Below, piece after piece: positions 1,234-61,896 of a stretch of DNA of 64,000 nucleotides. The DNA comes from Escherichia coli. Lineage in GTDB: Bacteria > Pseudomonadota > Gammaproteobacteria > Enterobacterales > Enterobacteriaceae. Position 1 is the first letter of the stretch, and the number at the start of each line of letters is the position of its first letter. The notes beneath the pieces were generated by a model. It did no database searches, had not been told where the DNA came from, and saw only the letters and a program-made list of their open reading frames with translations. The stretch is taken from NCBI RefSeq assembly GCF_044324785.1, contig NZ_CP172127.1, one strand, 5' to 3'. The position numbers were made by a program, and so were the translations under genes.

Positions 1234-3624
<2,391 letters not shown>

Positions 3625-60321: not shown

Positions 60322-61343
60322 CGACGATAGTCGCGGAACGGGCCGTCAGCCACGGAGCGGCGTTCAATCAACCGCGGATGCACTTCAATGGATTGCGGTT
60401 CTTCGCGTTTATTGACGATACGATCCAACAGCATGTTGAACGCCGTTTCGCCCAGCGAATCTTTTGGCTGATGGATCGTGGTCAGCGCCGGCGTAAAATA
60501 GCGGGCGTTGCGCACGTTATCATAACCGATCAGCGAAACATCCTGCGGGACGCGCAGACCCATTTCATCAGCAGCACAAAGTGCGCCCATTGCCATGATA
60601 TCGCCACCACAGAAGACGGCAGTAGGGCGATGCGGCTGCGACAGGATTTGCTGCATGGCGCGATAACCAGATTCGGGTTCAAAGTCACCCTGCACAATCC
60701 AGCTTTCCGGCACCTTGATCATCGCTTCTTCCATCGCCTTCATAAAACCGGCAAGGCGGCCTGCGCCGGTGTTACGTTCCAGCGGGCCGGGGATAACGCC
60801 GATTTCGCGGTGACCGCGTTCTATCAGATAACGCCCGGCCATGTAACCGCCTTCGAACGCGTTATCAATGACCGCATCGGTGAAGTCAGCTTTTGCTTCA
60901 CCCCAGTCCATCACCACCATTGGGATATGGCGATACTCTTCCAGCATCGCCAGCAACGGCTCTGGGTACTCAGAACACATCACCAGCAGACCATCGACGC
61001 GTTTTTGCGCCATCATCGACAGATAAGCCCGCTGTTTCTCAAGATTGTTCCACGCATTGCCCAGAATCAGGGTGTAACCTTTCTGGAAGCAATTTTTTTC
61101 AACCGCTTCAATGATCTCGGCAAAATAGGCCGCTTCGCTGCTGGTCGCCAGCAAACCGATAGACTTGGTGTGGTTAACCTTCAGACTACGCGCCACCGCG
61201 CTAGGGGAGTAGTGTAATTCTTTGATCGCTGCCCACACGGCGTTGCGCGTTTCTTCAGCGACGAAACGTGTTTTGTTGATCACGTGTGACACAGTTGTAG
61301 TGGAAACGTTTGCTCGTTTCGCTACATCTTTTATTGTTGCCAT
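60318..61343 (-). CDS. purR: purine repressor (LacI family)
   Basis: 341-aa [58 protein letters not shown]. Confidence 0.97.
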
Positions 61344-61387
61344 TCCATTTCACTCCAGACCCTAACTTCAGCTCCTGCAAAATCGCA

Positions 61388-61403
61388 AGGTAAACGTTTG
61401 CCT
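61388..61403 (-). promoter_or_regulatory. PUR-box-like operator in the purR leader (AGGCAAACGTTTACCT on the minus strand)
   Basis: AAACGTTT-centred palindrome about 45-60 nt upstream of the purR ATG; purR is autoregulated through operators in its leader. Confidence 0.55.
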
Positions 61404-61641
61404 TTACACACCTTACGCACAACAAAAGTGTTGCGGTACGCCGGAAAAACGACACGGAGCGTCAGGAAGGGGTCAATGGCCAGTACGCAAATAGTGTAAG
61501 CGTGGAATTTTGGCCGATCTTGACGAAAAGGGGAAGTGGTAAAAACACTTATCATTATAAATGACGGGAGATTTTTTCATCACAGTGTGTAAAAATGCGT
61601 AATATCACTTTTTGTGTGGTAATAAAAAAGGAGAAAACTTG

Positions 61642-61731
61642 ATGAGCACCGACCTTAAATTTTCACTGGTAACAACGATTATCGTCCTCGGTTTGATCGT
61701 GGCCGTGGGTTTGACAGCCGCGCTGCACTGA
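61642..61731 (+). CDS. ynhF: 29-aa single-TM small membrane protein
   Basis: ATG AGC ACC GAC ... CTG CAC TGA gives MSTDLKFSLVTTIIVLGLIVAVGLTAALH; GGAG Shine-Dalgarno 8 nt upstream; not in the ORF track because it is under 60 aa. Confidence 0.7.
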   Translation: MSTDLKFSLVTTIIVLGLIVAVGLTAALH

Positions 61732-61896
61732 TTTCCTCTCGAGGGAGCGCGTTCTCCCTCGCATCTCCTTCCTGTTTGTTAGCAAAATGGCAAAAGTGTT
61801 TTCTCTTTTTGTTATTTTCATTTTTTTGTGATTGCTGTCATGCTTTCGCCACTTTAATGAATATCGCGTAATGACGCGAAGAGGTGGAGATAAGGC

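Follow-up and report, generated by a model that had tools for sequence, protein, structure and literature searches.

The 29-codon gene cydH (ynhF) beside purR in Escherichia coli and its product, a single-helix subunit of cytochrome bd-I

Results

A 29-codon gene between purR and ydhP

The window analysed here, meaning the whole 64,000-nucleotide stretch of Escherichia coli contig NZ_CP172127.1, is 98-100% identical to E. coli genomes and is colinear throughout with E. coli strain 104, from pheS to mepH, at 98.4% identity. Between purR and ydhP it carries on its plus strand a short coding sequence at 61642-61731, which opens with an ATG at 61642-61644, ends with a TGA at 61729-61731 and comprises 29 codons plus the stop. 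A Shine-Dalgarno sequence, AAGGAG, stands at 61628-61633 on the same strand, 8 nt 5' of the ATG. Translation of the window gives the 29-residue peptide MSTDLKFSLVTTIIVLGLIVAVGLTAALH, in which residues 7-28 are strongly hydrophobic (mean Kyte-Doolittle value 2.45) and correspond to one transmembrane helix. Of 5426 complete E. coli genomes, 5425 contain the 501 bases around the gene.

The identity of the reading frame is established by several kinds of comparison. All 29 residues are identical to chain H of PDB entry 6RKO ('Cytochrome bd-I ubiquinol oxidase CydH (YnhF)'), a chain whose sequence recurs in seven other PDB entries, making eight in total. The NCBIfam equivalog NF033411 (cytochrome bd-I oxidase subunit CydH) matches the peptide over positions 1-29 of 29 with 50.2 bits against a cutoff of 30, and no Pfam model matches it. 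The RefSeq annotation at exactly this position reads 'cydH: cytochrome bd-I accessory subunit CydH', between purR and ydhP. Sequence, length, position between purR and ydhP and RefSeq annotation are all those of CydH (CydY, YnhF) of E. coli K-12 (UniProt A5A618), with no difference between the two. The window ORF is the already characterised gene cydH, formerly ynhF and also called cydY, which was found in 2008, had its partner identified in 2019 and is routinely annotated in RefSeq.

A preliminary description of this DNA, made from the sequence alone, had named the gene ynhF and described it as a 29-codon ORF with a single predicted transmembrane helix and a good Shine-Dalgarno sequence, invisible to ORF calling at 60 amino acids; each of these points agrees with what we find. 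Even with the minimum set at 20 amino acids the ORF list presents the frame only as a 39-amino acid, TTG-started ORF at 61612-61731, and it is for this reason that the gene escapes a 60-amino acid cutoff. The last 5 kb of the window hold 84 ORFs of at least 20 amino acids, so the length of a 29-codon ORF is not above chance, and the case for a gene therefore rests on the identity to the PDB chain, the curated HMM and codon-level conservation. The TTG-extended, 39-residue form was considered as the product and rejected, as conservation, mass spectrometry and structure all fit the 29-residue form that starts at the ATG. We also rejected an antisense ATG-started ORF of 52 amino acids (61663-61821, minus strand), which overlaps cydH and the hairpin that follows it and which nothing suggests to be a real gene.

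Distribution and codon-level conservation of cydH

When 1.84 billion representative proteins were searched by phmmer with the CydH peptide, padded with its natural upstream codon to 30 amino acids, 27 relatives were returned at E values of 0.001 or below, all of them at least 67% identical. Fourteen of the 27 were aligned, and the alignment was the starting point for a scan of 100,044 species genomes that yielded 80 orthologous loci; the pattern used in the scan, M[SD][TA][DN]LKFSL, fixes the first nine CydH residues by construction. These loci belong to the genera Escherichia, Citrobacter, Salmonella, Enterobacter, Klebsiella, Raoultella, Leclercia, Lelliottia, Kosakonia, Phytobacter, Pluralibacter, Atlantibacter, Pseudescherichia, Erwinia, Pantoea and Enterobacillus. 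Taken together, the CydH searches retrieved only sequences that are at least 55% identical, from the Enterobacteriaceae, the Erwiniaceae and Enterobacillus.

Gene structure is uniform across this set. Every one of the 80 loci has an ATG start and exactly 29 codons (29 codons in all 81 sequences when the window is counted), and a purine-rich Shine-Dalgarno element of the GGAG, GGGG or GAGG type lies at the same place in almost all of them. Nucleotide diversity among the orthologues is 0.22, 0.11 and 0.49 at codon positions 1, 2 and 3, respectively. The pooled Nei-Gojobori ratio pN/pS is 0.21 in the cydH frame, whereas the other two frames give 1.07 and 1.79. Because the scan pattern fixes the first nine residues, the ratio was computed again on codons 10-29 alone, where it is 0.30 in frame and 1.14 and 1.93 off frame. 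The pattern is illustrated by the comparison of E. coli with Citrobacter braakii, whose cydH genes differ by 19 synonymous changes and 1 non-synonymous change. The cydH reading frame is under purifying selection, which is to say that it is protein-coding. The preliminary description had proposed to judge the ORF by conservation of its frame and by the balance of synonymous and nonsynonymous change; since that balance is the one expected of a coding sequence, with an ATG and 29 codons in 80 of 80 loci, the coding claim stands.

Conserved elements upstream of cydH

A candidate promoter for cydH, recognised by its conservation, is the extended -10-like sequence TGTAAAAAT (TG-n-AAAAAT) at 61588-61596 on the plus strand. 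In 79 of 81 sequences TGn(A/G)AAAAT occurs between -48 and -54 relative to the ATG; the motif is at -84 in Enterobacillus and absent from one sequence, and its columns are invariant across 15 genera. It is likely to be the cydH promoter, in which case transcription would start near 61603 and the leader would be about 40 nt long. A second conserved block, AGATTTTT, lies at 61569-61577 on the same strand, 11-12 nt 5' of the TG motif, and could represent the spacer and -35 region or a regulator site; its columns A226 and A228-T233 (alignment A2) are invariant or nearly so. The arrangement of AGATTTTT followed 11-12 nt on by TGTGTAAAAAT (61569-61596, plus strand) is invariant from Escherichia to Erwinia. 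A scan with a sigma-70 pattern called no cydH promoter, the candidate having been missed because it has no -35 match.

Comparison of the 298-nt intergenic region with the consensus sequences for FNR, ArcA and CRP gave only weak matches with at least three mismatches, none of them at an activator position, and none was accepted as a site. CydH may be abundant at low oxygen because its assembly with CydAB stabilises it, and not through an FNR or ArcA site at the locus.

The intergenic region also contains, in the purR leader, a PurR-box-like palindrome, AGGTAAACGTTTGCCT, at 61388-61403, which differs by three mismatches from the PurR-box consensus and whose core, TAAACGTTTGCC, varies little or not at all in 15 genera. 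A second palindrome of this kind, GGAAACGTTTGC, is located at 61302-61313 within the coding sequence of purR. It is about 90 nt from the first, a spacing that fits the two autoregulatory operators of purR, which the two palindromes presumably are. The palindrome AGGTAAACGTTTGCCT presumably belongs to the autoregulation of purR and not to cydH. We note that a ChIP study in Salmonella lists, under the label 'purR<>ynhF', a peak of MarA/RamA with GCCCGTTTCGCTACA as its site (PMC10268841). The E. coli counterpart of that site, GCTCGTTTCGCTACA, is at 61310-61328, within the 5' end of the purR coding sequence and not in the intergenic region.

Overlap with the Rfam family STnc550

The same DNA is covered by a match to the Rfam family RF02081, 'STnc550', at 61344-61734 on the plus strand, which scores 395.9 bits (gathering score 48) and extends over model positions 1-388 of 388. 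Its first base is the one that follows the start codon of purR and its last lies 3 nt past the cydH stop; the match thus spans the whole of the purR-cydH intergenic region together with the cydH coding sequence. The coding sequence corresponds to model positions of approximately 296-385, a stretch over which the model has no structure annotation and over which the family consensus translates to MSSDLKFSLITTIIVLGLIVAGGLTAALH. The 5' part of the match is antisense to the purR leader and includes the palindrome AGGTAAACGTTTGCCT.

A conserved hairpin downstream of cydH

The coding sequence is followed, 8 nt past the stop, by a stem-loop of the form CGAGGGAG-cgcgtt-CTCCCTCG at 61740-61761 on the plus strand, with arms at 61740-61747 and 61754-61761 and a loop of 6 nt. 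The preliminary description had reported this hairpin, and its G+C-rich stem proves to be one base pair longer than was described there, at 8 bp, with a folding energy of -13.1 kcal/mol. The tail that follows it in the window is CATCTCCTTCCT, which includes no T-run or U-tract, and a terminator pattern scan did not call the hairpin at 61740-61761; for these two reasons it is not a canonical intrinsic terminator.

A G+C-rich hairpin is present 0-14 nt past the cydH stop in nearly all of the 80 loci (at positions of approximately 3095-3130 in loci L002-L081), and the stems vary in sequence with pairing kept: GAGGGAG/CTCCCTC, GGGGGAGAG/CTCTTTCCCCC, GGGAGGAGC/GCTCCTCCC, GGGCCAG/CTGGCCC and AAGGCCGAT/ATCGGCCTT all occur. 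Across the 80 loci the 40 nt past the stop fold with a mean energy of -15.6 kcal/mol, compared with -6.8 kcal/mol for shuffled sequences and -10.7 kcal/mol for comparison segments located 400 nt downstream; the mean z score against the shuffles is -3.9, and z is below -2 in 87.5%. Most Enterobacteriaceae orthologues have a tail of mixed C and T after the stem and no U-tract. A few Erwiniaceae have a true T-run, and Erwinia oleae has the canonical order of A-run, stem and T-run.

The hairpin is probably a 3'-end, terminator or stabiliser element of a short cydH mRNA. The gene would be a short monocistronic unit that reaches from the extended -10 promoter at about 61588-61596 to the hairpin at 61740-61761. 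According to an RNA-seq study, the 5' end of the ynhF mRNA is trimmed in an RNase G-dependent manner (PMC4191395).

Two further observations concern this region. The arms of the hairpin resemble a Shine-Dalgarno sequence (GAGGGAG) and an anti-Shine-Dalgarno sequence (CTCCCTC), within 61740-61773. In four loci (L050, L052, L057 and L060, from Atlantibacter and from 'Citrobacter freundii' M-21) a longer, A/T-flanked stem, CAAACACCA...TGGTGTTTG, is located about 33 nt past the stop in place of the usual GAGGGAG-type hairpin and resembles a canonical bidirectional terminator; the ydhP start is some 70-170 nt further off in these loci. The grouping of the 'Citrobacter freundii' M-21 record with Atlantibacter suggests that it is mislabelled.

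Synteny of the cydH region

The gene upstream of cydH is the divergently transcribed purR in 80 of 80 loci, and the two start codons are separated by 279-304 nt in nearly all of them, with larger values in Erwinia endophytica (400 nt) and Enterobacillus (356 nt). Linkage to purR and its spacing are conserved even where ydhP or sodB is absent or has moved, and this association is stronger than anything seen downstream of cydH. On that side, cydH is followed by ydhP in most Enterobacteriaceae loci. Counting the loci that extend far enough, ydhP is not next to cydH in 13 of the 80: Salmonella enterica subsp. arizonae, one Pluralibacter metagenome-assembled genome (MAG), and all 11 loci from outside the Enterobacteriaceae (L071-L081), which comprise nine from Erwinia or Pantoea, Enterobacillus and one Enterobacterales MAG. 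Neither cydAB nor appCB is present in the colinear 64-kb window. Lying between purR and ydhP, cydH is an orphan gene separate from the cyd operon, and its location matches the published one (PMC6853902).

Discussion

The evidence assembled above almost certainly identifies the window ORF as cydH, translated from its own Shine-Dalgarno sequence into a single-helix subunit of cytochrome bd-I that docks on CydA and not on the products of its genomic neighbours. The biochemical basis is in the literature. Thesseling et al. (2019) found that the cryo-EM map of the E. coli bd oxidase contained a fourth subunit that had not been expected, a single helix of about 3 kDa, and identified it as YnhF by nano-LC-ESI-MS/MS; the protein is made at low oxygen, keeps its formyl-methionine and is encoded outside the cyd operon between ydhP and purR, and it was proposed to block a dioxygen channel that stays open in the Geobacillus enzyme (PMC6853902). 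The subunit has been placed between TM1 and TM9 of CydA, stabilised by a phospholipid, at a position that binds menaquinone in mycobacterial bd, and is described in the same review as exclusive to bd-I (PMC8951039); bd-II is without a CydH subunit (PMC8585947). A 2025 preprint gives the CydH site as helices 1 and 8 and reports that CydH covers heme b595, and structures from 2025 again show the CydA-CydB-CydX-CydH heterotetramer. Intact, formylated CydH of 29 amino acids has been detected with 100% coverage by top-down proteomics and mass spectrometry (PMC12529367).

The following picture emerges for its mode of action. CydH, a 29-residue, formyl-methionine-retaining protein with a single helix, inserts into the inner membrane and docks on CydA, in the cleft between transmembrane helix 1 and a helix that is numbered 8 or 9 depending on the publication. 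CydA is the catalytic subunit of the cytochrome bd-I ubiquinol oxidase, whose cydABX genes sit elsewhere on the chromosome. Once docked, CydH shields heme b595 from the lipid phase and would close the wide gas or ligand entry that the Geobacillus enzyme uses, so that dioxygen would reach heme d only through the narrower channel from CydB. The literature searched yielded no deletion phenotype for cydH/ynhF and no comparison of activity with and without CydH, so this gating role, with channel blocking as the physiological function, is one deduced from structure. The bd-II oxidase of E. coli and the mycobacterial bd oxidases function with no subunit of this kind (PMC8951039, PMC8585947), and CydH is thus not mechanistically indispensable for this class of enzymes.

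The preliminary description remarked that small membrane proteins of this kind are often regulatory partners of transporters or kinases, called the partner unknown, and put forward YdhP and PunC as membrane proteins to be examined. Its general expectation was right in that CydH does partner a larger membrane protein; that protein, however, is neither unknown nor a transporter or kinase, as two cryo-EM structures and mass spectrometry identify it as CydA. Regulation by CydH of the adjacent YdhP, a member of the MFS, or of the purine nucleoside transporter PunC, on the model of MgtS with MgtA, AcrZ with AcrB or MgrB with PhoQ, appears exceedingly improbable to us. As a class, small single-helix membrane proteins do often bind transporters or kinases (reviewed in PMC12648545), and ydhP adjoins cydH on the same strand, with cydH 165 nt upstream, but a conserved hairpin separates the two genes and no interaction of either transporter with CydH is reported in the literature examined, the experimentally determined partner being CydA. 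Nor does synteny lend YdhP or PunC any support, because 13 loci, among them Salmonella enterica subsp. arizonae and all of those outside the Enterobacteriaceae, have no ydhP next to cydH. A second, moonlighting partnership with membrane RNase E has been raised by a bacterial two-hybrid screen with the N-terminal half of RNase E, from which full-length CydH was recovered and found positive on re-test; the clone was recovered once only, however, and the authors ascribe the signals of their group I, to which CydH belongs, to generic binding of hydrophobic transmembrane helices by the amphipathic membrane-targeting sequence (PMC13232886), which leaves such a role very unlikely.

An altogether different proposal is that the functional product of the locus is an RNA, STnc550, with the ORF either incidental or part of a dual-function transcript. 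STnc550 was originally a candidate for an Hfq-associated enterobacterial small RNA, and the Rfam match is full-length at 395.9 bits in an intergenic region that is highly conserved. This conservation is nevertheless accounted for by the purR leader with its PurR box and by the promoters of both divergent genes, and the matched sequence forms many non-canonical pairs in the Rfam structure. The 3' 90 nt evolve as a coding sequence, with changes concentrated at third positions and a pN/pS of 0.21 in the cydH frame only, and the CydH protein has been seen by mass spectrometry and cryo-EM (PMC6853902, PMC12529367). A literature search for STnc550 found no paper that mentions it, and we consider the chance that an RNA is the functional product to be very small. 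The cydH mRNA, the purR leader and a pair of divergent promoters explain the intergenic conservation. A purely non-coding reading is refuted; a dual-function reading, as both mRNA and regulatory RNA, is unsupported. The 5' end of the family, which falls exactly after the purR start codon, suggests that it was delimited as an intergenic region. RF02081 describes the same DNA as the cydH locus but is filed as a small RNA, although its 3' quarter is protein-coding and under purifying selection and specifies a protein that has been detected; it seems to be an intergenic region plus an mRNA that has been wrongly labelled, and not a non-coding RNA.

Read as cydH, the locus invites comparison with other small membrane proteins. 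CydX, AppX and CydS are, like CydH, about 30-40 amino acids long with a single transmembrane helix, attach to CydA by hydrophobic contacts and for a long time escaped annotation. The gene for CydX is part of the cydABX operon, and CydX sits on the other side of CydA, near heme b558, whereas CydH is the product of an orphan gene beside purR, sits near heme b595, is restricted to bd-I and has a narrow distribution. With AcrZ-AcrB, MgtS-MgtA, KdpF-KdpABC and MgrB-PhoQ it shares a hydrophobic helix docked on a large polytopic membrane protein. Unlike AcrZ, MgtS, KdpF and MgrB, CydH has a respiratory oxidase as its partner and is a stoichiometric structural subunit of the purified enzyme, not a conditional regulator.

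Finally, the near-universal pairing of purR with cydH could reflect not an accident of ancestry but a functional coupling, in which PurR occupancy or the activity of the purR promoter modulates the cydH promoter, or in which the cydH mRNA is also a regulatory RNA; we regard such a coupling as improbable. If true, a coupling of PurR to the cydH promoter would make the subunit composition of this high-affinity oxidase depend on purine status, and either version would bear on the physiological role of CydH. The locus itself is an example of a genuine gene of 29 codons that ordinary ORF thresholds miss and that was picked out from the sequence alone.
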